Below, piece after piece: positions 2,477 to 33,295 of a stretch of 64,000 bases of DNA. Origin of the DNA: Candidatus Bathyarchaeota archaeon (lineage in GTDB: Archaea > Thermoproteota > Bathyarchaeia > Bathyarchaeales > Bathycorpusculaceae); assembly GCA_963715865.1 (NCBI GenBank), contig OY970280.1:928001-992000 (forward strand). Direction: 5' to 3'. The translations under genes were made by a program, and so were the position numbers. How positions within the stretch are numbered: the first letter of the stretch is position 1; each line of letters starts with the position of its first letter. The notes under the pieces are model-generated. The model did not search any database. It had not been told where the DNA came from and saw nothing but the letters and a program-made list of their open reading frames with translations.

Positions 2477-2613
2477 CTGAATCGGTGCCAGGTTGCTATA
2501 CAAATTATCCACATGCACTAGCGCCTAATAACTGCCGAAAATGCGATACAGAATTAAAAAGCCAATGTCAACTGATCGCGGTAAATAAGCCAAAAACGGA
2601 GCTTCTAAAATGA
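2473..2613 (+). CDS. Small Cys-containing protein (46 aa, not in ORF track)
   Basis: MTESVPGCYTNYPHALAPNNCRKCDTELKSQCQLIAVNKPKTELLK; ATGA overlaps with both neighbours. Confidence 0.5.
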   Translation: MTESVPGCYTNYPHALAPNNCRKCDTELKSQCQLIAVNKPKTELLK

Positions 2614-5159
2614 CTGAGCAGCAGGAACTTAAGGCAGCGGCAGAGGTTTATCACGAGTTAGGCATGTCCATTATACCTTTTTACATTAACCCTCAAGCCG
2701 ATGCTAACGGAGTACATGACAAAAAACCGATAATAACCACTTATGCACAATGGCAAACAACACCACAGACAGACGAAGAGTTTAAGGGCCTAGACTGGAG
2801 AGGATGTAACGGTTTTGGCATACTGTTAGGCAAGAAAGCCAAAAATGGTTTATACCTTTCTGCTATTGACTTCGACACAAAAAACAACAAAAAGACCCCT
2901 GAAGAACGCGAAGCCTACGAAAAAGCAATAATCAAAGGGAAAGAAATCTTTAACGACTTTCCAGTAACCATGATAGAAAAGACCGTTAATGACGGATTGC
3001 ATAAGCTCTATTGGAGTAAGATTAAACCAAAAATCGAAGGCACTTTTCACGATACGATAGCCCTTGAGCTTTTAGGAGAGAATAAACTCTGTGTTATGCG
3101 TCCTTCATACGGTTATACTAATATAGGCTCTGATGTAATAACTGAAGTTGAGAACTTAGAAGAAACTTTTTACTATATTCTAAAACAGCATGGTTTCAGT
3201 CTTGATGAAGAAACAGAAATAGCAAACCAACAAGATAATTACAGCTTCGAGATCAGTAAGATTGTTGACTTATCCAAACTGGAAAAGCAAGCAAACGGCT
3301 ATGAATACCAAGGCTCTCACCCGATCCACGACAGCACAACGGAAAAGAATTTTTGCGTAAACACCAAAACTAACACATGGTTCTGCTTTAGACACAACAG
3401 CGGAGGCGGTGTACTTCAATATTTAGCCATGAAGGACGGCTTAATCAAGTGCGAACAAGCCAAAAAAGGCGCGCTTAGAGGAAAGAAGTTTAAAGACGTT
3501 CTTGAGTTAGCAGTCGCTAGTCACTTGTTAGACGAAAAGGTACTCACTCAGAGCGAAATTAACCCGGTGATTTTGGCTAAAGATATCATGGAAGATTATG
3601 TTTTTGTGGTTGACAGAGAAGCAGACGAACTTTATTTCTATGATGAATCTGAAGGCATATATTCCAATATGACTGAGCAGTTTCTTAGAAGGCAAATTAC
3701 AAAGCGTCTTGATGAAAATTTCAAATCCCGATATCAGACAGAAATAACCGAGTTTATCCTAGGCATAGCACCGCTCGTTATAATGAATTCTGCAAAACCT
3801 GAAATGCTACCGATAAAAAACGGTTTATTAAATGTCCTAACTAAAGAGTTCTCAGAGTACACTTCAGACGTTTACATAACCAATAAACTAACCGATGTTA
3901 CCTTTAATCCTGCAGAGCAAAGCACCGTTTGGCACGACTTTTTGAATCAAGTATTACCAAATAAAATACAGCAAAGACAGCTCCAGCAACTCATAGGACA
4001 TTGCCTTATCAAAGCAATCTTAACGGAAACATGTGTTATTTTACTTGGAAAAGGTGCTAACGGTAAAACTATTTTCTTACTAACTATCACTAAGTTTCTT
4101 GGAGGCTCAAACAACGTTAGCAGCCACTCAATACAAGCCTTATGCTACGACAAATTCATAACTGGAGAAATCAGAGGCAAACTTGCTAATATTTGCGCTG
4201 ACCTACCGCATAAAGAACTCTTAAACACAGCAATTTTTAGAGGCTTAACGTCCGGTGACAGTTTACAAGGCTATATCAAACACGTTCAAAAAACCGTATC
4301 ATTCATACCGACAGCTAAATATATCTTTTCAGCTAACCAAACGCCTCCAGTAGCCAATGAAGAGGACTGTTACGCATGGTACAGACGTTTCGTTTTTGCA
4401 GATTTTAACGTAACTTTCACCGGTGAAAACGCGAAGCCACGACAAGAATTATTAAACAGCCTATCAACTCCAGCCGTATTCAGCGAAATCTTGAATTGGG
4501 CCTTAGACGGTCTAGCTGACTTAATTAAAAACAAATGTGAAATCTCAGAACGCCCAACAGTGGAATACATAACACACCAATACATACTCCGCTCAGATAC
4601 AGCCCTAGCATATTTTGAGGAAAAAGTAACAATCACGGATAACTCTACAGACTTCGTTTTTACAGATGATTGGCATAGAGATTATGTAACTTACTGTCAT
4701 AACACCGATTTGAAACCTAAAAATCAAGGCGAATTCATTGAAACAGTAAAACAACATTTACCAGGTGCCGAACACTGTAGAATTCGGCCCTACTATGCAA
4801 AAGGTGACCATAAACCGAGTGCTTTATCAGCCTATCGTTATGTTAAAATCGTGAAAAGTGTACCACGTGTACCAGATGTACTGGCTCCCGAAATTATAAC
4901 GCCAAAACAAGAAAAAAAACAACTAGGTGATTTTACTATTTCAGGGGGAATAATTCCAGAAGCCAGTACACCCAGTACCAGTGGTACACAACGAGAGAGA
5001 ATTCAGCGAACTTATGATTTAATCAAGCAACAATACAAAAAATCAAGTATGCCTTTAGAAGTTAAGACAATAGAAGATCAAGAGGCAGTTACGCAACTTA
5101 TCCGGGAAAGTAAGGTGTTTTTCACTCAAGCTGGGTATATAGCGCCAACGGAGGCTTAA
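2610..5159 (+). CDS. Bifunctional primase-polymerase / Zn-finger / SF3 (D5/P4-like) helicase replication protein
   Basis: N-terminal Prim-Pol motifs (GMSIIPF, GFGILLG, LSAIDFD, GLHKLYW); CHC2-like HPIH...WFCFRH; Walker A GKGANGKT; KYIFSANQTP motif C. Confidence 0.9.
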   Translation: MTEQQELKAAAEVYHELGMSIIPFYINPQADANGVHDKKPIITTYAQWQTTPQTDEEFKGLDWRGCNGFGILLGKKAKNGLYLSAIDFDTKNNKKTPEEREAYEKAIIKGKEIFNDFPVTMIEKTVNDGLHKLYWSKIKPKIEGTFHDTIALELLGENKLCVMRPSYGYTNIGSDVITEVENLEETFYYILKQHGFSLDEETEIANQQDNYSFEISKIVDLSKLEKQANGYEYQGSHPIHDSTTEKNFCVNTKTNTWFCFRHNSGGGVLQYLAMKDGLIKCEQAKKGALRGKKFKDVLELAVASHLLDEKVLTQSEINPVILAKDIMEDYVFVVDREADELYFYDESEGIYSNMTEQFLRRQITKRLDENFKSRYQTEITEFILGIAPLVIMNSAKPEMLPIKNGLLNVLTKEFSEYTSDVYITNKLTDVTFNPAEQSTVWHDFLNQVLPNKIQQRQLQQLIGHCLIKAILTETCVILLGKGANGKTIFLLTITKFLGGSNNVSSHSIQALCYDKFITGEIRGKLANICADLPHKELLNTAIFRGLTSGDSLQGYIKHVQKTVSFIPTAKYIFSANQTPPVANEEDCYAWYRRFVFADFNVTFTGENAKPRQELLNSLSTPAVFSEILNWALDGLADLIKNKCEISERPTVEYITHQYILRSDTALAYFEEKVTITDNSTDFVFTDDWHRDYVTYCHNTDLKPKNQGEFIETVKQHLPGAEHCRIRPYYAKGDHKPSALSAYRYVKIVKSVPRVPDVLAPEIITPKQEKKQLGDFTISGGIIPEASTPSTSGTQRERIQRTYDLIKQQYKKSSMPLEVKTIEDQEAVTQLIRESKVFFTQAGYIAPTEA

Positions 5160-5160
5160 G

Positions 5161-6348
5161 ATGGAAGCCCAAGCCGTTATTAAGTGTCCTGAATGCGGCA
5201 GCGAGAAATTCTTTAAAGACGGGGTAAGGAAACTTTCAAACAAGCAAGAAAAACAGCGTTATGTTTGCCGTGTATGTGGCTACAGATATACATACCCTAC
5301 TAGCTTAAATTCTGTCTCGGACAATTCAGTGAGCAGCCAAATATGCGTCGCGGAGACGAAAAATTTGGAACCAGTGCAGAAAACAAAAGGAAAACTATTC
5401 TGTGCTGGAGATGCAAAACTAAGTGCTGACACCAAAGGATTACTAACACAGTTCTACGCCTACCTAGAAAAAGAAGCCTATTCTGTTGAAAGCGATTACG
5501 TTGATAAAGTTAAGCACCTTGCCGTTCTTGGAGCTAACATTCGCGATCCAGAACACGTTAAAACCGTAATCGGACACATGCAACGGAAAGACGGCCAAAA
5601 AACTAAAAACGGCACTAAAATGCTGTACTGTTATTCCTATGATGCTTTTGTTAAAATGCTTAAAATTCAGTGGGATATGCCTACCTACGTTCAAGAGGAC
5701 CATGATCCTTTTGTTCCTGACGAAACCGAATTAGACGCATTAATCAGCTCTGCTAAATCTAAACTGTTAGCCGCTTACCTACAATGCCTAAAAGAAACGT
5801 TTGGCGACCCCGGCGAAGTGTTAAGAATCAAATATTTAGACGTTGACACCAACAACAAGGCAATAAGCATACGTTACCCCGTAAAAAATCACCTACCACG
5901 AACCCTTCAAGTATCAAACCGACTGTTAGCCATGATTGAAGCACTACCAAAAAAAGACGATAGAGTTTTCCCGACATCTTACGCAAACATGCTTAGACGT
6001 TTCGTGACTATGCGCAAAAGAACGGCTGATATCCACCAAAACCCCAGGCTATTAGCGGTTGACTTCACAGCCTTTAGAACTTGGGCTGGAACCATGATCG
6101 CCTACCACACAAACGGAAACGTGCTAATAGTTAAGAAACTGCTAGGCCACAAACAAATCAAAAACACAATGAAGTACATAGGCAAAATACAGTTCCAAAG
6201 CCAAGACTTTGAAACAACAAGCGCGTCAACCGTTGAGGACATCTTAAAATTGGGTTCTCAAGGCTGGATAGAATACTCAGTTGATAAAATCAACAATGTT
6301 GAATATCACTGTTTCAAGAAGCCTAAGAGGTTTAGCACTTATGTCTAA
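5161..6348 (+). CDS. Tyrosine recombinase/integrase with N-terminal Zn ribbon
   Basis: CPEC...CRVC Zn ribbon; AFRTWAGT, LLGHKQIKNTMKY; C-terminal tail ending HCFKKPKR. The first catalytic Arg position reads ETFGDPGE. Confidence 0.85.
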   Translation: MEAQAVIKCPECGSEKFFKDGVRKLSNKQEKQRYVCRVCGYRYTYPTSLNSVSDNSVSSQICVAETKNLEPVQKTKGKLFCAGDAKLSADTKGLLTQFYAYLEKEAYSVESDYVDKVKHLAVLGANIRDPEHVKTVIGHMQRKDGQKTKNGTKMLYCYSYDAFVKMLKIQWDMPTYVQEDHDPFVPDETELDALISSAKSKLLAAYLQCLKETFGDPGEVLRIKYLDVDTNNKAISIRYPVKNHLPRTLQVSNRLLAMIEALPKKDDRVFPTSYANMLRRFVTMRKRTADIHQNPRLLAVDFTAFRTWAGTMIAYHTNGNVLIVKKLLGHKQIKNTMKYIGKIQFQSQDFETTSASTVEDILKLGSQGWIEYSVDKINNVEYHCFKKPKRFSTYV

Positions 6349-7551: not shown

Positions 7552-7619
7552 GAATAGTACTGATGAGTTGGGAAATTCTTATTGCTTCCGATAGCGCATA
7601 TAGGTGTGGGCTGGCGAGT

Positions 7620-7921
7620 TGGTGTGTGGCTTTCGGACCCAAAAAATGCTGGGTCTGAGGAAACTCCGCCCACGTGTAGAATTGCAGTGCCCCAAGGGTA
7701 CAGGGCGAGAGCCTTGGCTACGGAGCAGAAACGAAACGTCCAATTGGACTTGGCGATGAGACATTTGTGATGTCGAGTGTGCCAGTTTGGAAGCGGTGAA
7801 ACGGCCGTCCTGCAAGTGGAAAGGGCAAACAGTCGCTGATGAGGAATCTACCTGAAGGCGCGGGTAGCCCGATTAGCCGAATGCCACAATAACAGAAGGC
7901 GGGTTACAACCAACACACCAC
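7620..7921 (+). ncRNA. rnpB: RNase P RNA
   Basis: Universal CR-I GAGGAAACTCCGCCC and CR-V AACAGAAGGCGGGTTA. These form P4 with a bulged U (ACTCCGCC/GGCGG-GT). P1 = TGGTGTGTGG with CCAACACACCA. About 300 nt. Confidence 0.92.
7896..7921 (+). repeat. att core copy 1 (3' end of rnpB): AAGGCGGGTTACAACCAACACACCAC
   Basis: 26/26 identical to 12436-12461; the first 25 nt are identical to 18952-18976. Confidence 0.95.
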
Positions 7922-7931
7922 CCCAAATCAC

Positions 7932-8852
7932 TTGTACACCGCCTTAGAAACACCCAACGACACATCAATACTAAACGTATTAATCAACATGAAAAACAAC
8001 AACAAAAGCGACAGCACAATCAAATTTACAAGAAAAGCATTAAACAGATTAAGCAGTAAAGCAAAACTGAATGAACCCAAAGAAATAAAATCATTCATAG
8101 CCAACCTTAAAACAACAAACGCCTACAAAAGAAACCTCTGCATCGCATACAACAAATACGCAAAATACTATAAAATTCAATGGGAAATGCCACTATACCA
8201 ACAGGAAGAACAAAACATAGCACTCCCAACAAAAGAACGAATAGACGCACTCATAGCAAACGCAAGTACAGTAATGTCAACCAAACTAACATTAAGCAAA
8301 GAAACAGGACTACGACCCGTAGAACTATGCAGACTAAAAGTCAAAGACATAGACACCGACACAAACAAAGTTTATCCAATAACCGCTAAACATGGACAAG
8401 CCAGAACACTAAACATAAGCACAAACCTAAGCCAAAGACTTAAAGAATACATAACCAAAAACAAACTACAAAAAGAAGACAAACTTTGGCAAGAAGACGC
8501 AGACCACTACGGAGCAAACTTTCGCGAAATGCGAAACAAATTAGCCATAAAACTTAATGACCCAAAAATAGCTGAAATCAGACTATACGACCTAAGACAT
8601 TACTTCTGCACAATAACACTGCACAACACAAACGACACATACTACACAATGGTACAAATGGGTCACAAACACCTAACAACAACACAAAAATACTTACACC
8701 TAATCGCAAACTCAGGAAACGAAGAATACACAAGCAAAGCAGTACAAACAGGAACACCAACAACACTAAAAGAAATCATGCAACTAATAGATGAAGGATA
8801 CACCAAAGCAGACGAAATCGAAGGAATCCACATCTACAAGAAGAGGAAATAA
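7932..8852 (+). CDS. Tyrosine integrase, int(C) portion of a split integrase
   Basis: Complete tetrad: ETGLRPVEL (R), TAKHG (K), YDLRHYF (D/HxxR), MGHKHLTTTQKY (H, Y). The frame is open upstream through the att core (KAGYNQHTTPNH). Confidence 0.92.
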   Translation: MYTALETPNDTSILNVLINMKNNNKSDSTIKFTRKALNRLSSKAKLNEPKEIKSFIANLKTTNAYKRNLCIAYNKYAKYYKIQWEMPLYQQEEQNIALPTKERIDALIANASTVMSTKLTLSKETGLRPVELCRLKVKDIDTDTNKVYPITAKHGQARTLNISTNLSQRLKEYITKNKLQKEDKLWQEDADHYGANFREMRNKLAIKLNDPKIAEIRLYDLRHYFCTITLHNTNDTYYTMVQMGHKHLTTTQKYLHLIANSGNEEYTSKAVQTGTPTTLKEIMQLIDEGYTKADEIEGIHIYKKRK

Positions 8853-8890
8853 ACAACCCTCTCTTTTCTTCAGACACAAGTCAAACACAT

Positions 8891-8920
8891 GCTACGCTCC
8901 GCTACGCTCCGCTACGCCCC
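8891..8920 (+). repeat. 3 x 10-bp tandem repeat GCTACGCTCC followed by a T-run
   Basis: gctacgctcc gctacgctcc gctacgcccc ttttttt, between the convergent int and Rep operons. Confidence 0.85.
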
Positions 8921-8952
8921 TTTTTTTAACAAAAAACATAAAAACAAAAACA

Positions 8953-9147
8953 TTATGAAAACAAAACCTTCTCAAAAGCCCCACAATCAGGATTAACACA
9001 TACAAACAAATCATTATGAATAACACGAATATCAAATTCAACATAATATTCTAAAATAAAACCACAAGAAGGACACAATTTCACATGTAATTGAGAACCA
9101 AGTTTAGATAAATAAGAACGCTTAGAAACAGGAATATGCCAACTCAT
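8953..9147 (-). CDS. Small Zn-finger protein
   Basis: CPSC...CVNPDC; last gene of an overlapping minus-strand operon. Confidence 0.6.
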   Translation of the reverse strand: MSWHIPVSKRSYLSKLGSQLHVKLCPSCGFILEYYVEFDIRVIHNDLFVCVNPDCGAFEKVLFS

Positions 9148-9425
9148 AAATTAGCTATCACCGCCAAACCAGAAACATCATTATCCAAACCATAACGAAA
9201 CTCCATTTCAACAGAAGACAAATCTTGAAGAACCAACAAAAGAGGAAAAATACCAAAATTACCAAACCGCAAATAAAAACGGTACTGAAACTTACCAATC
9301 CCTTCACAAGCAAAAAAAACAACATCATCCGTCAAATAAAAACCATAAAAAACAGCCTTATCAACCACTTTTTTACCCTTAACAAACTTAACCTCAGAAA
9401 CAGGAACCTCAAAAGATTTATTCAG
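9144..9425 (-). CDS. Hypothetical protein (beta-rich); probably starts at CTG 9425 rather than GTG 9368
   Basis: Frame is open to 9425 with a GAGGTG SD 5 nt upstream; adds NKSFEVPVSEVKFVKGKK before VVDKAVF. Confidence 0.5.
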   Translation of the reverse strand: MNKSFEVPVSEVKFVKGKKVVDKAVFYGFYLTDDVVFFACEGIGKFQYRFYLRFGNFGIFPLLLVLQDLSSVEMEFRYGLDNDVSGLAVIANL

Positions 9426-10560
9426 AGTTACACCTCAAATTACCATCCGAATCCTTAACAAACAAATTACCGCCAAAAGCATCATACATATCCAAAATCA
9501 AATGCCTATGAAAATCAGGCGAACTCTCAACAGTACAAATCTTAACCCCACCGCAACCGCATTGACTAATTCTAACAAGTTCCAAACCGCAAAGAGGACA
9601 AACACGCTTATCCTTCTCAGGCTTATAATGCAACTTATGATAACCAGCCACACCAAACCAAGTCAACGGATAAAACCGTTTACCACCCTTAAGAGAACTA
9701 ATCTTAATCGACGAATGCCCTAACTGATACCAAATCGTACCAACAACAGTTTTACGTTCACCCTCAACCTTACAAATATAACCATCAGTCTTATTCTGCT
9801 CACGGGTCAACTGCTCAAAACCATCACAATGACAAGCCCGATTACAACCCGAAGAAGTACCCCCATGAGAAATCCATTGAGCAAAATCAGGACAATTTCG
9901 ACACCGAGCATAGCTCTCTTTCAGAAAACCAACAATATGCCAATGAGGAGCAAAAAACCACCCTAAACTTGCATCAGAAGTATTCAACTGTTGCCACTCA
10001 CGAAAACCATGATACCGAAAAGCATGAAAGATGACCAAACCGCCAATAATACCCCGCTTAAACGCAATCTTCAACGCCTTAGCATGTAACTTCTCATAAC
10101 TTAAACCATAATCAGACACAGGAACACTCAAAATAATATGCTCTATCTTTCCAAATTGCTTAGAAGCAAACTGTAAACGTTTCTCAGCCTTCCGAGCCTC
10201 ACGAGAAGCCCAACCAAACTTATAACAGACTCTACAAGACGGCTTATTACAATGAATCGAAGCAACATAAACATAAGCCTTATTCGCAAAATTACCAACT
10301 AAACTGTTCACATGACCCTTAACGTTAAGGCATCCTTCTAAATGAGAATGAGAACCACACGAACGATTAGTTTGCTCTTCAAGCCCGACTAACTCAAAAT
10401 CACCATGACGACCCCAAGTCGCATTAACCGCCTTAAAATCAGTCTCAGCAGAAACCTCATCATTCTTCATATCTTTCTGATAAACACGATAAATCTGTTC
10501 AAACTCACTGTCACAATATAAACGCAAAGGAAAAACGCAAAGCGAAACCTTCTTAGTCAA
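9418..10560 (-). CDS. HUH-superfamily rolling-circle replication initiator (Rep) with Zn-binding region
   Basis: HCNKPSCRVC Zn motif; motif I EHIILSVP; motif II APHWHIVG (HUH); motif III WYQLGHSS; C-terminal CPLCG. Confidence 0.78.
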   Translation of the reverse strand: MTKKVSLCVFPLRLYCDSEFEQIYRVYQKDMKNDEVSAETDFKAVNATWGRHGDFELVGLEEQTNRSCGSHSHLEGCLNVKGHVNSLVGNFANKAYVYVASIHCNKPSCRVCYKFGWASREARKAEKRLQFASKQFGKIEHIILSVPVSDYGLSYEKLHAKALKIAFKRGIIGGLVIFHAFRYHGFREWQQLNTSDASLGWFFAPHWHIVGFLKESYARCRNCPDFAQWISHGGTSSGCNRACHCDGFEQLTREQNKTDGYICKVEGERKTVVGTIWYQLGHSSIKISSLKGGKRFYPLTWFGVAGYHKLHYKPEKDKRVCPLCGLELVRISQCGCGGVKICTVESSPDFHRHLILDMYDAFGGNLFVKDSDGNLRCNSE

Positions 10561-10745
10561 ACACCAAGCCCCCCAAGTTTTTCAAAATGAAAATGGCAAC
10601 AATCCTTATTCCGAGCAGGAACCAACAAACCATCTTTCCAATCACACTGAAAGCCAGCTTTAGGATTCAAACGACAAATACAACCATTAGCGTAACAATC
10701 CACATAATCGCAGTCACAAACACCAAAAACAGGAACAGGCATCAT
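10557..10745 (-). CDS. Cys-rich small protein
   Basis: 8 Cys in 62 aa; overlaps both neighbours in the operon. Confidence 0.55.
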   Translation of the reverse strand: MMPVPVFGVCDCDYVDCYANGCICRLNPKAGFQCDWKDGLLVPARNKDCCHFHFEKLGGLGV

Positions 10746-10882
10746 TCAGAACCCCCATTATGCACCTTACGAATAAGCTTAATCAACAAATCAGCCAGCT
10801 CCTTACTAAAAACACCTAAAAACGGAGAAGTAAACACAATAATAGCAATCAAGCCATAGCCAACAGAAGCCAAAACAATCAA
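10742..10882 (-). CDS. Small single-TM protein (46 aa, not in ORF track)
   Basis: TTG start overlapping the upstream TGA; MIVLASVGYGLIAIIVFTSPFLGVFSKELADLLIKLIRKVHNGGSE; stop overlaps the next ATG. Confidence 0.55.
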   Translation of the reverse strand: MIVLASVGYGLIAIIVFTSPFLGVFSKELADLLIKLIRKVHNGGSE

Positions 10883-11151
10883 CGCTCCAAATCTGGAAAA
10901 CCATCCAGCTTATCACAAATCCACGTTAAATGAAACCCATCAAAATGAAAAGAAAACCTATAACGTTTACCGCCAGACCGACAAGCCCCAGAACCCAAAA
11001 CACAGAGGCAAAAAGGCTTACCAAAACGAGTTAAACCAATGAAATTAGCAGAAGGACAAACACTCAAACGGTCTTTTTCAGCCTTACCAACGATAACAGA
11101 ACCAACAACGACTTCTATATTCTTACTCAATCTTAACAAGCTCCAGACCAT
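10879..11151 (-). CDS. Hypothetical protein (element A)
   Basis: Fits the overlapping operon; C-x..-C-x-C-x6-C pattern. Confidence 0.5.
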   Translation of the reverse strand: MVWSLLRLSKNIEVVVGSVIVGKAEKDRLSVCPSANFIGLTRFGKPFCLCVLGSGACRSGGKRYRFSFHFDGFHLTWICDKLDGFPDLER

Positions 11152-11329
11152 CGAATATTAGAAGGGATTTACCCTTATCCAAACATTCAACAGCCCAAAG
11201 CTGATTCTCCATCATCATAAAATACAAATCATCGACACAAAGGTCGAAAACAATACTAAATTCTTTAGAGGCACGTTTATGATAAACATAAACAGACGAA
11301 CCGTTATCACGAAACGCCTTAAGTGCCAT
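11123..11329 (-). CDS. Hypothetical protein, first gene of the Rep operon
   Basis: ATG preceded by GGGG and an upstream TATA-like TTTTTTATAT on the minus strand. Confidence 0.5.
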   Translation of the reverse strand: MALKAFRDNGSSVYVYHKRASKEFSIVFDLCVDDLYFMMMENQLWAVECLDKGKSLLIFDGLELVKIE

Positions 11330-11438
11330 AACCCCTAATGCAATCTACTAATATAAAAAACTTTTCATGTCTATAGCATATACCGTAGCATGATATAGTC
11401 AACGACTATAAAACATTACACACAACAAAAACGAAAAA

Positions 11439-11535
11439 GGGCTTGCGTACCTAACAGATGTTTAAGCCATCTGGCAAGCCCCACACAAAAGGACAAAACA
11501 AAGACAAAGTAACTCTTTTTAGGAAAAGAGATTAC
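11439..11535. other. Candidate replication origin of element A (stem-loops)
   Basis: GGGCTTGC..CAGATG-[TTTAAGC]-CATCTG GCAAGCCC hairpin, then a GTAACTCTTTTT-AGG-AAAAGAGATTAC hairpin; both have counterparts at 17794-17880. Confidence 0.55.
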
Positions 11536-12235
11536 AGAAAAACCTTGAAACTAAACTGGAAGCGCAACACTCACAAAGAGTGTGCGAATTAACGAGCCAT
11601 CTACTCTTTCCAGAAAGAGATAGCAGAAAGCAACGCAACACGGCGAAAAAAGCTAAAAGTGGCGAGCCAGAGGTAAAAATGAGCCAATTTTTTTCCCTAA
11701 GTGCAAGTTCTCCAATTTCACGGAAAAAAAATGCTTGATAGCCCGTATTCCCCTTTTCACATATAATAGAAAAGGGAACCCCGAGCGGTGCCTCATTTTT
11801 ATCCACTTTTCCGAGCTTTTTTCGCCAAGCCAAAAACGAGAAAGAGTGTTAATAATGAAAATATATAGAAAAAGGCTAAAGACCAAACTTTCTTAAAAAA
11901 AGTTACAAAGAACTTATGGAAAAGAAAACATGAACGCATACGCTAACATATTTACGATATACCTGTAAAGCATCATAAACCGTTAAAAAACAGTTAATCT
12001 AAAAACTACAAATTAAAACGCTAAAACAAAAGTGATAAACAGCTAAAAAAAATGTAGAGATTAACCTACACTCAAACAAGCAAATGATAACAAAGTAACC
12101 ATTAAACCACAGGTTAAAAAAAGGTACAAAATCACCACCCCAACAATATCGTAACAAATTGTACCAAATAGAACATTAATGTATCAATAATATATAAAAA
12201 CATATATACAAATATCAATATATCCTAACATACCT

Positions 12236-12382
12236 ATGGTGAAAATTAAAATGGGAAAAACAACAATAATCTTAACCCAAGAAAACGAGAACCAAATCAG
12301 AATACGAAACCGTAAAAAAGGAGATATATCAAACACAATCAACCAAGCATTAGAACAATACTTCAAGAAGGTAGAACAATGA
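12236..12382 (+). CDS. Ribbon-helix-helix (CopG/Arc-like) protein (48 aa, not in ORF track)
   Basis: MVKIKMGKTTIILTQENENQIRIRNRKKGDISNTINQALEQYFKKVEQ: beta strand, helix, KKG turn, helix. Its stop overlaps the int(N) ATG. Confidence 0.75.
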   Translation: MVKIKMGKTTIILTQENENQIRIRNRKKGDISNTINQALEQYFKKVEQ

Positions 12383-12461
12383 CAGAAACAACAATAGAAA
12401 TAATAACAACAGAACCCACAAAAGAACGTACGATTAAGGCGGGTTACAACCAACACACCAC
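12379..12461 (+). CDS. int(N): N-terminal stub of element A integrase
   Basis: MTETTIEIITTEPTKERTI-KAGYNQHTT reads through att copy 2 in the same frame in which att copy 1 leads into int(C). Confidence 0.8.
12436..12461 (+). repeat. att core copy 2
   Basis: AAGGCGGGTTACAACCAACACACCAC, identical to 7896-7921. Confidence 0.95.
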
Positions 12462-12540
12462 GCCCAATTTCTGCTTACAATTGCTAAACTTACTTCTTTT
12501 TGTAAACTGCTTTGTCAACAAAGAACAGCATGATCTGGCA

Positions 12541-13494
12541 TTAATGCAAAACTTGCAAAAGAATAGCAATAATTGCTAAAGAAGCTGCAAAATATGGTGA
12601 TCGTGCTACAGCCTTTAAGGTATCAATGGGCGTGACAACTGTTATCATTGACGATAACTCTGATATTGGGTATTCCTTGTCATCTCTTCCAGTTTTGATA
12701 TTTTTTAAGGCTGTTAAAGCATCTCTAAGATCCTCCTTGCGTTGGGCCACACGCAAAGACTTGAGGAAGAGTTCAATTTGATTCCTGACTACAATCAGTT
12801 CATCATCTTTTCCCGCCAGAAATTCGCAGCAAGCTATCTTGCTGTATTCTTTTAAACCCTCAATACTGACATGGACGACCATAACTTGATTGAGATAGTC
12901 ATTATAAGCGTCTAACCCGGTATCAAAAAGATTTGAAAAGCTCTTTATTATTTTCTTTCTTTCAAGCTCATCTTGTACTTGTCTTACATTTATTGCTTTA
13001 ATTAAGGCTAGTTTAATGTAAATACGAGCCTTCCTATATTTTGATAAAGAGCCGATTAGCAAAAAAACCGATATTAGCAATAATGGTAGCGTAAGATTGA
13101 GAGAATAATCAATTAAAGAGTAAAGTCCTCCATTATTTTTAATCCATTGTGGATAATAAGCAAGCAATAAAATGGAAGTAGCAAACAATAATGTGAAAAT
13201 AAACATAAGGAAGGCAACAAAATATGTTCGGTATTTGTCTATAAAAATGAGGTTGCCTGGGTACAGTTCTTTCTTGCTTAATGAAATATAAATTCGACTA
13301 TGTATTAAAACTGCAGTTGCAAGAATAATTGTCCAAATATAGATAGTTAAAGACGATGGAGCTAAATAATATATAATCTCAAAAATGGTTAAGATGATTA
13401 TGATTAAGCTTAGCTCAATGAGCCTAATGTGTTGCCCATACGAATGATAAAACCTTTCGCTCAGTTTTATTCTCTTAAACGCTTTTGAAAACAT
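12541..13494 (-). CDS. Membrane protein, about 4 N-terminal TMs plus a helical domain
   Basis: 317-aa ORF with hydrophobic segments; no family recognised. Confidence 0.65.
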   Translation of the reverse strand: MFSKAFKRIKLSERFYHSYGQHIRLIELSLIIIILTIFEIIYYLAPSSLTIYIWTIILATAVLIHSRIYISLSKKELYPGNLIFIDKYRTYFVAFLMFIFTLLFATSILLLAYYPQWIKNNGGLYSLIDYSLNLTLPLLLISVFLLIGSLSKYRKARIYIKLALIKAINVRQVQDELERKKIIKSFSNLFDTGLDAYNDYLNQVMVVHVSIEGLKEYSKIACCEFLAGKDDELIVVRNQIELFLKSLRVAQRKEDLRDALTALKNIKTGRDDKEYPISELSSMITVVTPIDTLKAVARSPYFAASLAIIAILLQVLH

Positions 13495-13629
13495 GTGTGA
13501 TTAAATGACCTTTGTGGTTAAATATTTTGGCGTTAGATCAAGGTAGAGTCTTGTTGATTTGTTTTAACTTAAATAAAACGCCTATTCATAGACTGAAACT
13601 CTTCAATTTTTAATTTAACTATTCCCAAT

Positions 13630-14457
13630 ATGCTTAAATTTAGTTCCTCACCAAAGAATTGCAAAGGTCTCTCCATAATGGCAAGTACATTCAGTTTGAA
13701 AAGATCCTATTTGGTGTTAATTCTATTAGCTATTTTTTTTAGCGCCTTATCTTCTTACTTATTTTTTGCTTACAAAGAACAGTGGTTCTCAGCTTATTCT
13801 ACCAGCATTGCTTCAGGGATTGTAGGTTCATTAATAGTGATTTTTCTTATTGACCGAATAATTGAGAGAAACCGAGAAAGGGAACAAATGCAAATGAGAA
13901 AAATTGCTCTGGAAAAGCTGCGCATACCAATTGTATGGCAAATGATGTTGTTATGTAATGTGTATAAAGCTGCTTCAAAAGACAAACCACAGAAGCTACC
14001 ATCCAACTTTCAAGAGATATTTACGGACAATTTTTACACTGAAGTATCATTCCTTGATTTTGCCAAGGATGCTGGCGTTACGCCGAAGACGGATTGGTTC
14101 AACCGCTTGGATTCAGAGCTCCGATTCTTTAAGAAAAAAATTGAGCAAACCATTGATACTTACGCTATTTTTTGTGATAGCTCATTCATTAGTCTGCTTG
14201 AGAAGCTCATCAACTCACACTTTACCTTTTTTATTATTCAGGCAAAAGCTATTCCGATTGTAGACATGCAAATGGGATTCAAACGTCGCTATACTATGTT
14301 CTCAGGAACTGAAGAATTTTTGAAAGAACATGCTCTTCTTATGCTTCAGCTAATTGATTACTTCAATTCGGAAGCTGAAAAACCAATTGAATTTGATACA
14401 AGTATTTGGAGAGATGATGTTTCTCCACTATGGGGTAGCGGGCGAGTTCAAGGTTAG
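13630..14457 (+). CDS. Hypothetical protein, 2 N-terminal TMs plus a soluble domain
   Basis: 275-aa ORF; probable start MASTF at 13678. Confidence 0.65.
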   Translation: MLKFSSSPKNCKGLSIMASTFSLKRSYLVLILLAIFFSALSSYLFFAYKEQWFSAYSTSIASGIVGSLIVIFLIDRIIERNREREQMQMRKIALEKLRIPIVWQMMLLCNVYKAASKDKPQKLPSNFQEIFTDNFYTEVSFLDFAKDAGVTPKTDWFNRLDSELRFFKKKIEQTIDTYAIFCDSSFISLLEKLINSHFTFFIIQAKAIPIVDMQMGFKRRYTMFSGTEEFLKEHALLMLQLIDYFNSEAEKPIEFDTSIWRDDVSPLWGSGRVQG

Positions 14458-14506
14458 CCAATATATAGCAAAAGGAAAAAGCCTAGCTTTATTGATAACC
14501 CACCAT

Positions 14507-14829
14507 CTATTTGGGTTTTCTAAAAGCATGATGCCTTCGGTAGTAATGCAAACAAAGCTGAAGCCATCTTCAGTTAGTCTCTGAGCCTCTTCTGTCGTTT
14601 TAGCAATTGCTGAATAGTATTTGTCTCCCTCAGTTTTGATTAGATGCGTATATACCATTGTCGAGTTTATATTTTTATGACCTAATCTTTCTTGGACATG
14701 CAGAAGGACGTTTGTTTTAGCGTATTCTGTTGAACCAAACCAATGTCTGAGGCTATGAAACTTTATTTGATTAAGCCTTGGATTTTGTAATTTTATCGCA
14801 AGTCTTTTTCTCTGCTTTTCATAACTCCA
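14507..14829 (-). pseudogene. Tyrosine integrase C-terminal remnant
   Basis: Manual translation: KQRKRLAIKLQNPRLNQIKFHSLRHWFGSTEYAKTNVLLHVQERLGHKNINSTMVYTHL...; the N-terminal half is absent; a 1-nt deletion disrupts the terminal LFRKPK-stop. Confidence 0.85.
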
Positions 14830-14840
14830 TCAGTGACGCT

Positions 14841-15167
14841 TCAATTTTGCTTGGATTCTTTGTAGAGAAGGATTAGCCCCGCCAAGATAAGTAATGCTGG
14901 AACTACTCTAAAGATGACATTGAAAAAATAAATCCAACCCCAAGGAATGATGTAGGTTAATACAACTTCCATCCTAAGATAAATGTAGCTAATTACAATG
15001 GGTAAAGCTATCCATCCAACCGCTAGCAAAGCAGAGCCGACACCCATAATTAGGTATCCTTTCTTCTTCATCTTGAGAAAAAAGAAAGTTGAAACTGCTC
15101 CGACCATACCAAATATTATTGCTGGCAAGTAACTATTCAAAAGATCATACAGCAATGTTTCCCACAT
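14841..15167 (-). CDS. Small 3-TM membrane protein
   Basis: 108 aa, three hydrophobic segments. Confidence 0.6.
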   Translation of the reverse strand: MWETLLYDLLNSYLPAIIFGMVGAVSTFFFLKMKKKGYLIMGVGSALLAVGWIALPIVISYIYLRMEVVLTYIIPWGWIYFFNVIFRVVPALLILAGLILLYKESKQN

Positions 15168-15604
15168 TTTTACGCCCTCAATTGGTTAGGTATTAAGTCT
15201 TACCGCTTATAATTTTTTCAATAACTTAACCTGTAACCCGCTAAACAACACGAAATTCTATTAGTGATTGCCAATTAAAGATTAGATTATGCCTTAGATT
15301 TTCTCAAGATATGACAGTATATCTCAAGTTAAGTCTCGGCGTCGCTCCGCTCCACCTCGACGTTTACAAAATCAACCAACCGCGTTTTCGATGGCAAAAC
15401 TAAAGTCAATTCCAATACCTAAACCACTTCTAAGAAACAGAACTCGGCAATCAACCTTTGAGACTGACTTTATAATGGTTCAATTTGATATTCCTTAAAT
15501 ATAGTGTTACAACAATTAGCCTAGAATTGTCGATCCGATGTTTTAGTATTGCATGAAAATGCCAAAAGTTTTATCTTGTCTCTTAAACAATACTTAAACT
15601 TTAA

Positions 15605-16156
15605 TTGAAGGTAAGACAAATGGGAAGACTTAGCCTTGCATTCAAAACAAAGTATGGCGATATCAGAATTGAAGGCGATTCACTCGCAGATTTCAAGAAT
15701 ATTTTGCTAGAAATTGGAGTTTCAGAGATAGACATAGAGAGTATTAGAAACACAATCACATCCCAAATCGAGCATCAAGACATTATTGTTAGTATTCCTT
15801 CAATTCCAATTAGTTCATCAAAACCCGAGCTTACGGGAGTAATTGAGTATGGAAATGATGGGACTCCTCATATCACAATATCTTCTGACAAATTAACTGC
15901 AAGAGAAGTTATAGGTCTTCTTCTGTATACAAAAAGTCCAAATTCAATTTCCATGGGCGAACTTACTAACTTAGTAAAAAACAACTGGAAAAATGTTGAT
16001 ATGACGCAGATTTCGGCTAATCTAAGTTTTATGCGAGCTTATGTAATTAAAGAAGGGACAAGAGGCTCTTATTCATACAGACTCTCTGGGTCGGGCAAAG
16101 AATGGATTGAAAATGAACTGCTTCCAAAACTAAGGATGAAGTCAGTAAAGGCTTAG
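15605..16156 (+). CDS. Hypothetical protein with C-terminal winged helix
   Basis: LTAREVIGLLLY...SMGELTNLV...ISANLS...YSYRLSGSGKEWIE resembles a wHTH; abuts the next gene. Confidence 0.6.
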   Translation: MKVRQMGRLSLAFKTKYGDIRIEGDSLADFKNILLEIGVSEIDIESIRNTITSQIEHQDIIVSIPSIPISSSKPELTGVIEYGNDGTPHITISSDKLTAREVIGLLLYTKSPNSISMGELTNLVKNNWKNVDMTQISANLSFMRAYVIKEGTRGSYSYRLSGSGKEWIENELLPKLRMKSVKA

Positions 16157-16996
16157 GTGTGCCTTATGGGTGATGCTGAGAGAGATGGGGTCTGGTTGGG
16201 AATAGCATTGCAGAGTCTCATAACACTAGGGACAACTAAAAACGTGGTTAAGGAACAGGGTGGGATTTCAGATATTTTAGGCGAACTTATCGCGACCTAT
16301 AACAGAAGTGGAATTTCTGGAAATTTGCTAGCCGAAGCTCAGAGATGGGCGAATTATTTTAGAGACAATTATGCAGGAAATGAAAGTTTAAGACAAGCTG
16401 ACTCGGATAGGTTTGTTGCAGACTGCAGTAATTGGACTAAGTCTTTGATGGATATAATGAAGGAAAGGTTTGCTCACCCGAAGGAACTTTATGATAGACT
16501 GCCCAAAATTGATTTCATTCTTGATTCAATCAAGCAAATACAAACAGTAGAGCATCAATTTGTTTGTACAACACCCAATTCTCGCATTATTAAAGAAAAA
16601 GCCTCCGCAGCAATTGACGCAACTAATCAAGGGGATGTAATCCTTTTAACTGGTTATTTTGATAATGCTTTAGTTGACAAATTGAGTAGAGCATTGAGAC
16701 GAGGGGTTCAGGTTCGGTTAATCGTTCCAACCTACCATGCGAATGAGCATGATAATATTAATGCAACTAGAAGAGTTAGAACTGCAAATGGTCAGGTAAA
16801 ACAGCACGATTCAAATCACGCCAGACTAATGGTTTTCGGTGTAAGAGAAGCTATGGTTTCCTCTGCAGACCCAAAGACGGATGGTTTAGACCAAAATTAC
16901 GAAGCTGGAATTTGGACCACCAACAGAACCATAATCCAAAACTGCAAGGATTTTTTTGAAGAGATTTGGAATGAAGCATTAGATTGGAATATGTAG
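16157..16996 (+). CDS. Phospholipase D-fold (PLD/Nuc/TrmB-like) domain protein with N-terminal helical domain
   Basis: ILLTGYF...ALRRGVQVRLIV...NHARLMVFGVREAMVSSAD...NYEAGI...FFEEIW: PLD topology with a degenerate HxK-x4-D-x6-GSxN. Confidence 0.75.
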   Translation: MCLMGDAERDGVWLGIALQSLITLGTTKNVVKEQGGISDILGELIATYNRSGISGNLLAEAQRWANYFRDNYAGNESLRQADSDRFVADCSNWTKSLMDIMKERFAHPKELYDRLPKIDFILDSIKQIQTVEHQFVCTTPNSRIIKEKASAAIDATNQGDVILLTGYFDNALVDKLSRALRRGVQVRLIVPTYHANEHDNINATRRVRTANGQVKQHDSNHARLMVFGVREAMVSSADPKTDGLDQNYEAGIWTTNRTIIQNCKDFFEEIWNEALDWNM

Positions 16997-17409
16997 ACAT
17001 TGCCCAAGTTGGCAACTATATGCAAGAACCTGTCTAAATGACGCGAATAGAATCCTGTCATAGTCAGGCAGACTTGTGAACTATCGCAAACATCAAGACC
17101 GAGTCAAAAGGGGAACCCCACGATAAACTCGGTTTCCGAGCTTGGAACTGCACGAAACTCAGGCTAAAACCAAGCTATCACTTGCCTTTCCTATGCTCGA
17201 AGGAAAGAAAAAAGGGTTATGAGCTTAAACTACTTTAAAGGATGCGTTCCCTGAATGCATCAACAAATGGAGTAGCTTAACCCCAAACTCCAGAACCCCA
17301 GACTCCTTAGGGGTTCTTACAAGCAACTGACACCTCGCTTAGCGAGTACACCTCTCCTAAAGGGCACCCCCTCGCAAGCGAGGACTCTGTCTTACAAAAA
17401 AGTAAGTAC

Positions 17410-17703
17410 TTAATGCAAATTATTCTTGGGTTTATAGATTATGAATGTGTCTGGGTCTGTTTTGTTTATAGACCGCTTTGTTTTCCACATACTGCCAGCT
17501 TGGTAGGTAAGTTGATGTTTCATTAATATTTCTTGTATGCGTTTTTTTGTTTCTTCATCAAGGGCTGTTTTTATAGTAATTTGGTACCCTCCCATCATTG
17601 ACAAAGAGGCGTTAGAAGATGATAATTCCAAATAATGACCATCAAGACCACTACAATTGTCAAGGAGTTCCTTCAGAACCGATATGGCTTCTTCACGTTT
17701 CAA
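17410..17703 (-). CDS. Hypothetical protein
   Basis: 97-aa ORF with ATG and plausible composition. Confidence 0.55.
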   Translation of the reverse strand: MKREEAISVLKELLDNCSGLDGHYLELSSSNASLSMMGGYQITIKTALDEETKKRIQEILMKHQLTYQAGSMWKTKRSINKTDPDTFIIYKPKNNLH

Positions 17704-17793
17704 AACAATCCCCTATAATTCTCTTAAGAACTTCTCCTAAAAAAGATTCGGTAATACTCTCTTCAAAGGGAGTAGCATCGCTCCCGACTCCCC

Positions 17794-17880
17794 CCTTTAG
17801 TTTAAGCCTAAAGGAAACCCCCTGCCTCTAAGGAATAAAATGAGAATTAGATAAGTAACTTTCTTAGAAAGAAAGGTTAC
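17794..17880. other. Origin-like stem-loops of element B
   Basis: CCTTTAG-[TTTAAGC]-CTAAAGG and GTAACTTTCT-TAGAA-AGAAAGGTTAC, matching the loop and arrangement at 11455-11535. Confidence 0.55.
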
Positions 17881-18179
17881 AAAGAACAATTACTCTATGT
17901 CTGCACAAGAGTAATCAGAAAGCCGTTTTTTTGGCACCCCAAGACCCAAAAAAACCAACAACACCCACCAAGCCATCAAACCACAGTTAAGTAAAAACAC
18001 CTCAGGTAGCGAACAACTTTGGTGCAGAGCACCACCTTTCGCACCTAAGGACTCTGTTTTTTGCTCAGACAAGAAACAACAAAAGAGGAAAGTGAAAGAT
18101 TATTTTATTGTGTTTAGCGCGCGCGGATGTCTGCATCCCTTCATTTGACTCTCCATTTTTTAAATTCATCCAAGTTTTC

Positions 18180-18650
18180 TTAGGATTGCTTAGGTTTTTT
18201 AAGCATTGAACCAGCATACAGCCCGATGAAATATACTACCACAGAAAGGACAACATCGATTAACACTGTCAGCGCGAAATAAGCGAACCAATCGTAATTT
18301 GTCCACGAGCCCGTAGAGAATGTACTCTGGATGGAGTCTTTGAAAGCAGGACTTGCCAGCGGAGTGCCAAAGAAAGCTACAAGGAATATCATCAGCCCAA
18401 CCGTACTCAACATAACTATGCTGCCTATCGCTTTCAGTCTTGATTCCTCCTTAATCTGAGCAGCAAAAACGTAGCCGACTATCAGCGAAGTTACAATATT
18501 CGAAATAATGCCAGCAACAATAGTCATGGAGTTGTTGTTCAGTGGAGCAAATAGTACGAACAAGACAGCATCAAACAGTAAACTACTCACGAATAATGAA
18601 GCTGCAGCTATAACCACGTCACTAAATTTCAACCAATCACCTCCTCCCAA
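18180..18650 (-). CDS. Multi-pass membrane protein
   Basis: About 4 TM segments; probable start near LKFSDVV. Confidence 0.65.
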   Translation of the reverse strand: MGGGDWLKFSDVVIAAASLFVSSLLFDAVLFVLFAPLNNNSMTIVAGIISNIVTSLIVGYVFAAQIKEESRLKAIGSIVMLSTVGLMIFLVAFFGTPLASPAFKDSIQSTFSTGSWTNYDWFAYFALTVLIDVVLSVVVYFIGLYAGSMLKKPKQS

Positions 18651-18915
18651 ACTGAGCGCAAAAATCTATTTCATTATTCTTGGCTTAAATAATTTGTGTT
18701 GTTGATTCATTTACGGTTGCATTTTTTTTGTTTTTTTAAGAATGTTTGATATTTCCGTTCTTATTAGGCTTGTTTTGTTCGACGCTCTCCATACTCTAAA
18801 TATCAAAACTAAAATTCGGTTTACTTAACAGTGTCTTCACAACCTGAGTTGCCACAAGAAGTAACCGTCTAAAAGCTTATAACTAGACATTAACAATAAG
18901 AACACAGGGATAAAA

Positions 18916-18976
18916 ATGAGTAAAGAAACAAGTAAAAAATTACTAAGGCTAAAGGCGGGTTACAACCAACACACCA
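18916..18976 (+). CDS. int(N)-like stub of element B
   Basis: ATG 18916: MSKETSKKLLRL-KAGYNQHT, same frame through the att core as element A; TATA-like AAAAGCTTATAA about 40 nt upstream. Confidence 0.65.
18952..18976 (+). repeat. att core copy 3 (outermost attR)
   Basis: AAGGCGGGTTACAACCAACACACCA, 25/25 identical. Confidence 0.95.
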
Positions 18977-19002
18977 GCTTCACAAATCTCACTACTTGGT
19001 AA

Positions 19003-19377
19003 CTAGACTATTCTTATATTTTCTTTGCCAACACTGGCGAGTTTCTGGTCTCTTGTTAGTAAAACCTCATTATTGGCAAGAGAAATGCCCGCAATAAGCA
19101 AATCGTTCTCGTTAATCATTCTTCCAGAATCCCGTAGCTCTTCAAAAAGCAGGGCGGCTCTTTGGGCGGCGGCTCTGTCGAAAGAGTAGACGGTCACGCC
19201 AGACAGGAACCTTTCAGCAGCTTGTTTTCTTATTTTAGTCTTGTGTCTAAGCAACTCGTATTCGGTTATGGTTGTGGTTTTCACGTCTTCTCTCCTTATG
19301 ATTTCTTGGATTAGAGCAACGATTTTTTGGTCGCCCGCCAAGAAATCTATTATGACACTTGTGTCTAGTAGTGTCAC
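19003..19377 (-). CDS. vapC: PIN-domain toxin
   Basis: LLDTSVIID...TEYELL...INENDLLIAGISL...LLTRD. Confidence 0.9.
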   Translation of the reverse strand: MTLLDTSVIIDFLAGDQKIVALIQEIIRREDVKTTTITEYELLRHKTKIRKQAAERFLSGVTVYSFDRAAAQRAALLFEELRDSGRMINENDLLIAGISLANNEVLLTRDQKLASVGKENIRIV

Positions 19378-19631
19378 TCGAATGTCCTTCCGTAATTAGC
19401 CTCTCTTTCGGCGGCTATTTGCTGCTTTAATCGTTCAAGCGTCTCTTTATCATCCTTTAAAATGCCAGCTAAGCTCATGATGTCTACTTTTTCTTCCTTT
19501 GGGCAGAGGTTTTCTTTGATTACCTGTGAAAAACTCTTTTTGCCTTTTCTTTTTGATAGAAGTTCATAAACCTCATTTGAAACTGAAATCTGCCTTGCCA
19601 TAAACATTCCCCATATACATAATGTATACAC
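19374..19631 (-). CDS. vapB: VapB-type antitoxin
   Basis: RQISVSNEVYELLSKRKGKKSFSQVIKE motif; overlaps vapC. Confidence 0.85.
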   Translation of the reverse strand: MYTLCIWGMFMARQISVSNEVYELLSKRKGKKSFSQVIKENLCPKEEKVDIMSLAGILKDDKETLERLKQQIAAEREANYGRTFE

Positions 19632-19944: not shown

Positions 19945-20265
19945 TTACTTTTGATATTTAGGACGTTTGGATTCTCTCAACCAAAATTGAGGGTCATCGA
20001 CCGTTATGATCTGAATTTCAACTACGTTTTTCGGATTAGTTATTGCTTCGCGGAATTTCGGAGATAAATCAGGTTTTCCCAGAAATGCCATTCTGGACTC
20101 TTCCAACTCATCTGCAACGCGTTCACTTTTTTTGTTGGCGTAGCCACGGTACTTTACGCTTTTTCCTTCAACGATAGCTTTATCGAAATCCTCTTTACAG
20201 CACTGCACTAGTTTGGCGCCATCTCGGATGAACCAGTGGGGTGAAGTTGGAGAAGTCTTGGACAT
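19945..20265 (-). CDS. Hypothetical protein
   Basis: 106-aa ORF with ATG; no family recognised. Confidence 0.5.
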   Translation of the reverse strand: MSKTSPTSPHWFIRDGAKLVQCCKEDFDKAIVEGKSVKYRGYANKKSERVADELEESRMAFLGKPDLSPKFREAITNPKNVVEIQIITVDDPQFWLRESKRPKYQK

Positions 20266-33187: not shown

Positions 33188-33295
33188 TGGTGCCGAGGGC
33201 AGGGTTTGAACCTGCGACGACTCGGTCTTCAGCTTCGCCCCCAGCTACCGAGAAGTAACTAGGTCGAGCGCTCTCCCAGGCTGAGCTACCTCGGC
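33188..33295 (-). tRNA. tRNA-Phe(GAA) with a 31-nt intron at non-canonical position 30/31 (33234-33264); CCA encoded
   Basis: Acceptor GCCGAGG/CCTCGGC, T-arm GCAGG-TTCAAAC-CCTGC. Removing the intron gives CTCGG-CTGAAGA-CCGAG. A strict BHB motif is present. Confidence 0.92.

Follow-up and report, generated by a model that had tools for sequence, protein, structure and literature searches.

The window analyzed here, 64,000 nucleotides (nt) of a Candidatus Bathyarchaeota archaeon (assembly GCA_963715865.1, contig OY970280.1, positions 928,001 to 992,000), carries the RNase P RNA gene, rnpB, followed by two inserted segments that each end in a repeat of the last nucleotides of that gene. A complete rnpB lies at 7614–7920 on the + strand, with a match to the Rfam model RNaseP_arch (RF00373) at 7614–7918 that spans the full model (positions 1–288; 188.6 bits, gathering score 84, E 1.7e-54). 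The gene proposed in a preliminary description of this DNA thus passes the covariance-model check; its start had been placed at 7620, 6 nt downstream of the true one, and the remaining coordinates were correct. rnpB is present in single copy in the genome, a single contig of 2.35 Mb. The last 25 nt of the gene, AAGGCGGGTTACAACCAACACACCA, occur as exact copies (0 mismatches, all on the + strand) at 7896–7920, 12436–12460 and 18952–18976, and the distances between the copies, 4540 and 6516 nt, are as first described. No copy is expected by chance (0 in 100 shuffles), no fourth copy is present in the window even when 7 mismatches are allowed, and in the whole genome the 25-mer is found only at these three places. 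Sequence identity among the three sites is confined to these 25 nt, or 26 nt for copies 1 and 2. The repeat corresponds to RF00373 positions from about 266 to 288, the last 23 of the model, plus 2 nt beyond it, and in the structure line of cmscan it comprises the 3′ strand of P4 and the closing 3′ strand of P1; the P4 strand is displayed as unpaired in this consensus structure line because it forms a pseudoknot. At all three copies, the repeat is translated in frame as KAGYNQHT.

This peptide belongs to an integrase. An open reading frame (ORF) that reads out of the 3′ end of rnpB, at 7896–8852 (+), encodes the C-terminal part of a tyrosine recombinase, Int(C); the frame is open from 7893 and extends for 318 codons from 7896 to a stop at 8850–8852. 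Residues 115–269 match PF00589 (Phage_integrase) at 62.4 bits against a cut-off of 27.1 (E 6e-17), the best PHROG integrase family is matched at 7.5e-21, and a phmmer search of all PDB chains retrieved archaeal XerA, XerC-like proteins and IntI4. The SSV1 (Sulfolobus spindle-shaped virus 1) integrase entry was not among the PDB matches at E ≤ 0.01 in that search, which included no dedicated SSV profile. The catalytic residues R140, K165, R234, H257 and Y266 are invariant or nearly so among 12 to 13 homologs, and the first His of the HxxR motif is replaced by Tyr (Y231), which is invariant in alignment A4. The missing start of the gene lies at the far end of the first inserted segment, where Int(N) (12379–12460, +) consists of an ATG, a 19-codon leader and then att copy 2 in the frame of Int(C), giving the translation MTETTIEIITTEPTKERTI-KAGYNQHT. 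Both 12436 − 12379 and 7932 − 7920 are divisible by 3, so that the joined gene stays in frame, and 12379–12460 joined to 7921–8852 forms a single uninterrupted integrase gene. Because the repeat lies inside the integrase ORF, integration cuts the gene in two, leaving Int(C) at the left attachment site (attL) and Int(N) at the right one (attR) in a common reading frame, which is the organization of SSV-type elements. Judged from sequence, the repeats are the predicted attachment (att) sites of a tyrosine integrase with the SSV-type, or “suicidal”, layout. The preliminary description had correctly read the repeats as att sites derived from the rnpB 3′ end but lacked the key mechanism, the location of att within the integrase ORF.

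The 4.54-kb segment between att copies 1 and 2 (7921–12460), hereafter element 1, is apparently intact and holds the integrase, a gene for a Rep-like protein and small ORFs. Its + strand contains 38–49% A and 19–28% C throughout, irrespective of the strand on which the genes lie, and this bias ends at 12460. That the bias stops at the border fits a replicon with a single-stranded phase and argues for a recent insertion; element 1 was not present at the rnpB locus of the relatives checked. The largest gene on its – strand (9418–10560) encodes a Cys-rich protein of 380 amino acids (aa), a probable rolling-circle replication initiator of the HUH (His-hydrophobic-His) class and the Rep_1 kind, as suggested by its motifs, its predicted fold and its position in the Atlas. 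The 20 homologs, none of which carries a Pfam name, share invariant H141, H179, R182, P205-H206-x-H208, Y278-Q-L-x-H282 and Cys clusters, and homologs are present in further rnpB-linked elements. An AlphaFold model (mean predicted local distance difference test score 65) was compared with 48,161 PDB representatives, and the top matches, weak ones at Z 4.0–5.2, were HUH replication nucleases: SIRV1 ORF119 (5.2), vientovirus Rep (5.0) and pMV158 RepB (4.3), together with nanovirus, parvovirus and Helitron proteins. In language-model features, the closest named Atlas clusters carry PF01446 (Rep_1; 0.95–0.96). The protein has no match in Pfam (E ≤ 0.01), the PHROGs or PADLOC, a profile of the family retrieved nothing from PDB sequences, and Foldseek found nothing in the PDB at E ≤ 0.001.

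Taken together, these features make it very probable that the 3′ end of rnpB is the chromosomal attachment site (attB) of a family of small Bathyarchaeia elements with a split tyrosine integrase, that element 1 is an apparently intact member and that 12461–18976 is what remains of earlier insertions. In the free element, the attachment site (attP) would sit in the 5′ end of the integrase gene, which would consist of a private leader of 12–19 codons, about 25 nt identical to the rnpB 3′ end and the remaining coding sequence. When attP recombines with rnpB, the exchange would restore a complete rnpB at attL, since the element brings the same 25 nt, would leave Int(C) fused to the end of rnpB and would shift the promoter, leader and att copy, that is Int(N), to the far end as attR. 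Free element 1 would probably replicate as a rolling circle. Segment 12461–18976 would be the leftover of earlier insertions, comprising an outer Int(N) stub with its att copy, no Int(C), a relic of a different integrase and cargo. Catalysis of this exchange by the integrase, a retained ability of element 1 to excise and a role of the Rep-like protein in driving rolling-circle replication are our inferences.

The site without the insertions can be seen in a relative. Att copy 3 (18952–18976) is the outermost attR, and the host flank beyond it begins with a toxin–antitoxin pair, VapC (19003–19377, –) and VapB (19374–19631, –). In genome G002, of the same genus, rnpB is immediately followed by homologs of VapC and VapB (63% and 67% identity), and the DNA alignment of window 18952–19630 with the G002 locus (L156, 362–1033) begins exactly at att inside the G002 rnpB, so that, relative to G002, 7921–18951 is an insertion bordered by att. 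The preliminary description had anticipated a relative with a single-copy junction, and here the rnpB 3′ end is joined straight to the VapCB flank that follows copy 3 in the window. In three other genomes of the genus, a host gene further out (19945–20265) is separated from rnpB by 5–11 kb of differing content; the interval downstream of rnpB is variable, and the locus is a hot spot. At the G002 locus (L156, 386–1110), the VapCB pair is enclosed by rnpB on one side and a degenerate att-like copy with 5 mismatches on the other, and another att-like copy about 3.7 kb downstream (4101–4125) is preceded by leader DNA of the ..LLS type. The toxin and antitoxin genes may themselves be old cargo.

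A scan of 185,579 species genomes with a degenerate rnpB 3′-end pattern gave at least 117 matching stretches, and among the matches listed all belong, by record title, to Bathyarchaea or to archaeal metagenome-assembled genomes (MAGs) placed with them. About 18 of the listed copies lack an rnpB body, and four of the listed loci have two direct copies 1.0–5.6 kb apart. Several orphan copies (L074, L083, L098, L113 and L118) have in-frame ATG leaders that end in ..KLLRL or ..KLLSP, as does copy 3. In at least 17 genes, rnpB runs into a co-directional integrase ORF. The survey for rnpB 3′-end duplications near integrases that had been proposed at the outset thus uncovered many in other Bathyarchaeia, including integrases fused to rnpB. 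More than 460 homologs of the window integrase were found in the protein collection, and their N termini translate the rnpB DNA in all three frames according to subfamily (KAGY.QHT, KGGL.PTHQPK and RRRVTTNTP). Since three reading frames of the same rnpB DNA are used, it is the DNA that is conserved and not the peptide. The unsplit form of the gene was found as well: at L163 and L164, integrase genes with their own leaders contain 20–24 nt of the rnpB 3′ end and no rnpB body, and L164 also encodes a Rep homolog (38% identity); L168, L175 and L186 hold unsplit integrase genes of the same appearance. In another closed genome, L183 and L170, 6 kb apart, comprise rnpB with Int(C), a Rep relic, a second att-like copy and then a frame-broken integrase homolog, a tandem array like that of the window. 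A 417-aa integrase (L135, 4852–6102, –; L079, 493–1743, +) also runs in frame out of rnpB; it matches PF00589 at 1e-15 and shows no BLAST similarity to the window integrase, and it represents a second, divergent split-integrase lineage at rnpB.

Some copies of the rnpB 3′ end are inverted or distant. At L081, two complete rnpB genes lie in inverted orientation 2.4 kb apart; on the contig shared by L034 and L092, about 174 kb separate a full rnpB from an inverted partial copy; and L039, L061 and L065 are att copies on three contigs of one MAG. Such arrangements raise the possibility that att copies recombine with one another and thereby rearrange chromosomes as well, an alternative being errors in MAG binning or assembly. 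Chromosome rearrangement through att recombination has been reported for other archaeal integrases.

The rnpB target is shared unevenly among the relatives of the window integrase. Among 80 loci with integrase homologs in genomes, the integrase adjoins a co-directional rnpB at 26 and a tRNA gene (mostly Ala and Gln) at 14; 35 loci have neither neighbour, and the remaining 5 are at contig ends. A quick maximum-likelihood tree was built from 61 rows after 19 loci that were too short, broken or truncated had been omitted and the att-coded N terminus had been trimmed. The window integrase falls in a clade with 98% support in the Shimodaira–Hasegawa-like approximate likelihood-ratio test, in which 12 of the 15 rows are rnpB-linked; the other half of the tree contains 11 of the 12 tRNA-linked rows. 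The rnpB label requires 8 changes on the tree, against a mean of 17.7 when labels are shuffled. The clustering of the two labels indicates that members of a clade inherit their target and that switches between rnpB and tRNA genes have been few. The dedicated rnpB-targeting family that had been suggested on the basis of the window alone therefore holds insofar as rnpB-linked integrases cluster; they form clades of a larger family that also targets tRNA genes and are not wholly separate from it.

The second inserted segment (12461–18976, 6.52 kb) is a decayed mosaic, and of the two tandem foreign elements in the preliminary description only the 4.54-kb one is an apparently intact element. At its outer end, an Int(N) stub (18916–18976, +) consists of an ATG, a 12-codon leader and att copy 3 in frame, translated as MSKETSKKLLRL-KAGYNQHT, with a stop soon afterwards in the host flank. 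At its inner end, att copy 2 would serve as attL of this segment as well as attR of element 1, and no Int(C) lies 3′ of it: three codons still read TPN, with synonymous changes relative to the element 1 Int(C), and are followed by unrelated sequence and a stop at 12577. Further inside, 14476–14835 (–; GCCTA..TTTACT..AACCCACC) is a relic of an rnpB-proximal flank, detected by blastn to L045, L066, L070 and L162 and homologous to the DNA directly 3′ of rnpB in many relatives. Within it, tblastn revealed the C-terminal relic of a convergent, opposite-strand integrase (14557–14826) that aligns with Int residues 208–303 and with residues 285–368 of a 395-aa integrase encoded upstream of rnpB. Modules at 17243–18080 and 18868–18951 are found beside orphan att or attR copies in at least 10 other genomes, the latter being conserved at 80–87% next to att copies in at least 10 genomes. 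The segment also encodes membrane proteins and a PLD-like nuclease (16157–16996, +; PF13091, 4e-15). This stand-alone nuclease resembles DrmC of the DISARM system (DrmC-like models, E 6e-11), and it is preceded by an unnamed 183-aa ORF (15605–16156) whose stop overlaps its start; the nuclease may be a small defence cargo. A repeat search for origin-like stem-loops common to element 1 and this segment gave only matches of 17–24 nt, as expected in A-rich DNA, and does not support the presence of such shared stem-loops.

We read this segment as a mosaic of at least two older insertions, with the outer Int(N) stub and its att copy as the only part typical of the family. A possible though unlikely alternative is that it was a single second member of the family, integrated whole, that later lost only Int(C). 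Such an element would now be a non-autonomous passenger: it might be mobilized in trans by the element 1 integrase, or the two elements might excise jointly as an 11-kb circle with a hybrid integrase gene. The family-typical promoter region and correctly framed Int(N) stub at the outer end would be as expected, as would the TPN codons that persist after copy 2 like the start of an Int(C), the continuing identity of all three att copies and the existence, at L183 and L170, of a tandem array with a second integrase, now frame-broken. However, the relics at 14476–14835 of an rnpB-proximal flank and of a different, convergent integrase are hard to explain by one insertion and point to at least two older events; moreover, the segment shares no sizeable repeats or origin-like sequences with element 1 and contains no Rep homolog.

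As for element 1, it is improbable that it is the provirus of a small single-stranded DNA virus and not an integrative plasmid. The candidate rolling-circle Rep, the 4.5-kb size and the strong strand bias would suit such a virus, and a capsid protein could conceivably be concealed among the small unnamed ORFs on the – strand (8953–9147, 10557–10745, 10879–11151 and 11123–11329). These, however, encode just 62–90 aa and have no match in Pfam, the PHROGs or PADLOC; no ORF of the element matches a capsid or virion family in Pfam or the PHROGs, no capsid-like gene was recognized, and the att pattern has no match (0) in the IMG/VR viral contigs. That the repeats arose without site-specific integration, by segmental duplication or homologous recombination that copied the end of rnpB, is negligibly probable: duplication can make short repeats, and nothing specific speaks for it here, whereas the same 25 nt are reused in frame by an integrase gene whose halves flank the insert, the layout recurs in dozens of genomes with different inserts, and unsplit integrase genes contain the core.

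Several observations weigh against integration of a family of split-integrase elements at rnpB as we describe it. First, the G002 site is not pristine: two degenerate att-like copies are present downstream of its rnpB, at distances of 745 and 3739 nt. Second, assembled contigs from four peat metagenomes contain no circle junction of element 1, an absence that could simply be due to the data, which were limited to such contigs. Only seven runs, all from peat metagenomes and all as Logan contigs, contain 5–8% of the sampled words, and depth in them is not readable as abundance; the contigs of four of these runs show other content between att copies and include no clean empty-site contig. Third, the Rep assignment is weak, with Z scores of about 5 and a Pfam Rep_1 match at E 0.32 in only 1 of 16 homologs. 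Finally, Int(C) has no in-frame ATG before M31, and a TAA at 7890–7892 closes the rnpB-derived frame upstream, which together place in doubt the route to integrase from the integrated copy.

This last point bears on how the split should be understood. An ATG within the conserved GAAUGCC of rnpB (window 7881–7895) is in frame with att, and in many relatives this ATG opens the frame, with gene calls that start MPQQQ-KAGY... or MKNLPEARVARLAECHKKQ-KAGY... (P0038, P0040, P0140 and others). In the window, no run of four T occurs on the + strand from the end of rnpB to the integrase stop, the first being at 8864. The start-codon and oligo-T data would thus allow expression of the integrase from the integrated state. 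We speculate, while considering it rather doubtful, that the split is not suicidal at all. Given that Int(N) is a short leader, integration would do no more than give the integrase gene a different 5′ end, transcription running on from the strong rnpB promoter could yield a near-full-length integrase, and in tandem arrays a hybrid full-length gene would be rebuilt at the middle att. Integration into a ribozyme gene would then be a switch of promoter and leader and not only a safe landing site.

Other mobile DNA adjoins the locus. Just upstream of rnpB, 2610–6348 is a third mobile element, which encodes an 849-aa primase-helicase (D5_N, DUF5906 and a DnaG zinc ribbon) and the 395-aa tyrosine recombinase (PF00589), 28% identical to Int(C). 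Homologs 78–81% identical lie upstream of rnpB at L117 and L130, and the arrangement at L117 is that of the window. Many Bathyarchaeia have, on the opposite strand, an unsplit integrase of about 365–390 aa that ends 50–100 nt past rnpB (L044, L045, L059, L066, L067, L070, L131 and L144), or relics of one (L050, L056, L080, L103, L116, L141 and L162); these integrases are 30–35% identical to the window ORF at 5161–6348. No second att copy was found in the 2–6 kb available around them, and they may belong either to larger rnpB-targeting elements of classic layout or to a conserved neighbour. Elsewhere in the window, Rfam identifies a tRNA of 105 nt at 33191–33295 (–; 46.4 bits) that has no ARAGORN call and adjoins tRNA-Val (33833–33909); it is probably an intron-containing archaeal tRNA gene.

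The arrangement at rnpB resembles known systems without coinciding with any of them. Integrases of the SSV1 type (type I, or suicidal) are described, in PMC8371274 and PMC7253208, for fuselloviruses and for plasmids of Thermococcales and Methanococcales, with attP within the gene. Common to these and to element 1 are an attP in the integrase ORF, its split into Int(N) and Int(C) at the element ends, a rebuilt target gene and a protein that contains the translation of its own att site. The present case differs in that the target is the RNase P RNA gene and not a tRNA gene, that Int(N) comprises only 20–27 codons, so that Int(C) is nearly the whole protein, that the sequence matches archaeal XerA-like recombinases in the PDB with no SSV1 entry retrieved and that the hosts are mesophilic Bathyarchaeia. 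Elements that integrate at the 3′ ends of genes for tRNA and tmRNA (Williams 2002, cited by PMC8371274) likewise use a highly conserved, stable structural RNA, leave a complete gene with its promoter at attL and a 3′ fragment at attR, and form tandem arrays. Here, however, the gene is that of the single-copy, catalytic RNase P RNA, the core covers the P4 strand of the catalytic center, and, unlike anticodon-loop or T-loop sites, it has no dyad symmetry. Another structural RNA gene other than tRNA serves as attB for phage phiEf11, which integrates into ffs (4.5S/signal recognition particle RNA) of Enterococcus faecalis (PMC12540744), although phiEf11, a tailed phage of bacteria, has an ordinary integrase gene that is not split, and its target RNA is a different one. 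The 380-aa protein shares with the Rep proteins of Rep_1 (pC194/pUB110-type) plasmids the conserved His-hydrophobic-His motif and Tyr, PF01446 clusters as feature neighbours and a small strand-biased replicon; it differs from them in its extra zinc-finger-like Cys clusters, in falling below Pfam thresholds and in being paired with a site-specific integrase in an archaeal element.

In archaea, nearly all descriptions of site-specific integration concern tRNA genes, alongside a few protein-coding or intergenic sites. The same 2025 ffs paper (PMC12540744) gives tRNA, tmRNA and csRNA as the known RNA targets in bacteria, and RNase P RNA is not among them. In a 2021 review of archaeal tyrosine recombinases, the targets are tRNA genes, some protein genes and intergenic sites, and RNase P is never mentioned. 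We found neither rnpB nor RNase P RNA described as a target of integration in a full-text literature search, Bathyarchaeia virus and genome papers included; subscription journals were mostly outside its coverage, and an earlier report is possible. What is new is thus the target, the gene of a single-copy ribozyme and its catalytic P4 strand, whereas the mechanism, an SSV-type split combined with integration at an RNA 3′ end as in tRNA and tmRNA genes, was already known.

Bathyarchaeia are an abundant and barely cultured class of archaea, and to our knowledge no genetic tools exist for them. The 25-nt att site and the integrase of about 340 aa, as predicted here, may offer a starting point for an integration vector. 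The finding also offers a case from nature in which integrases have switched their target from one RNA gene to an unrelated one, and rnpB should be added to the loci scanned by genomic-island finders. The Bathyarchaeia papers that we found describe few mobile elements. In this class, attachment has recurred at the P4 strand of the RNase P ribozyme gene, and this use of the strand defines a family of very small integrative elements that probably replicate as rolling circles.

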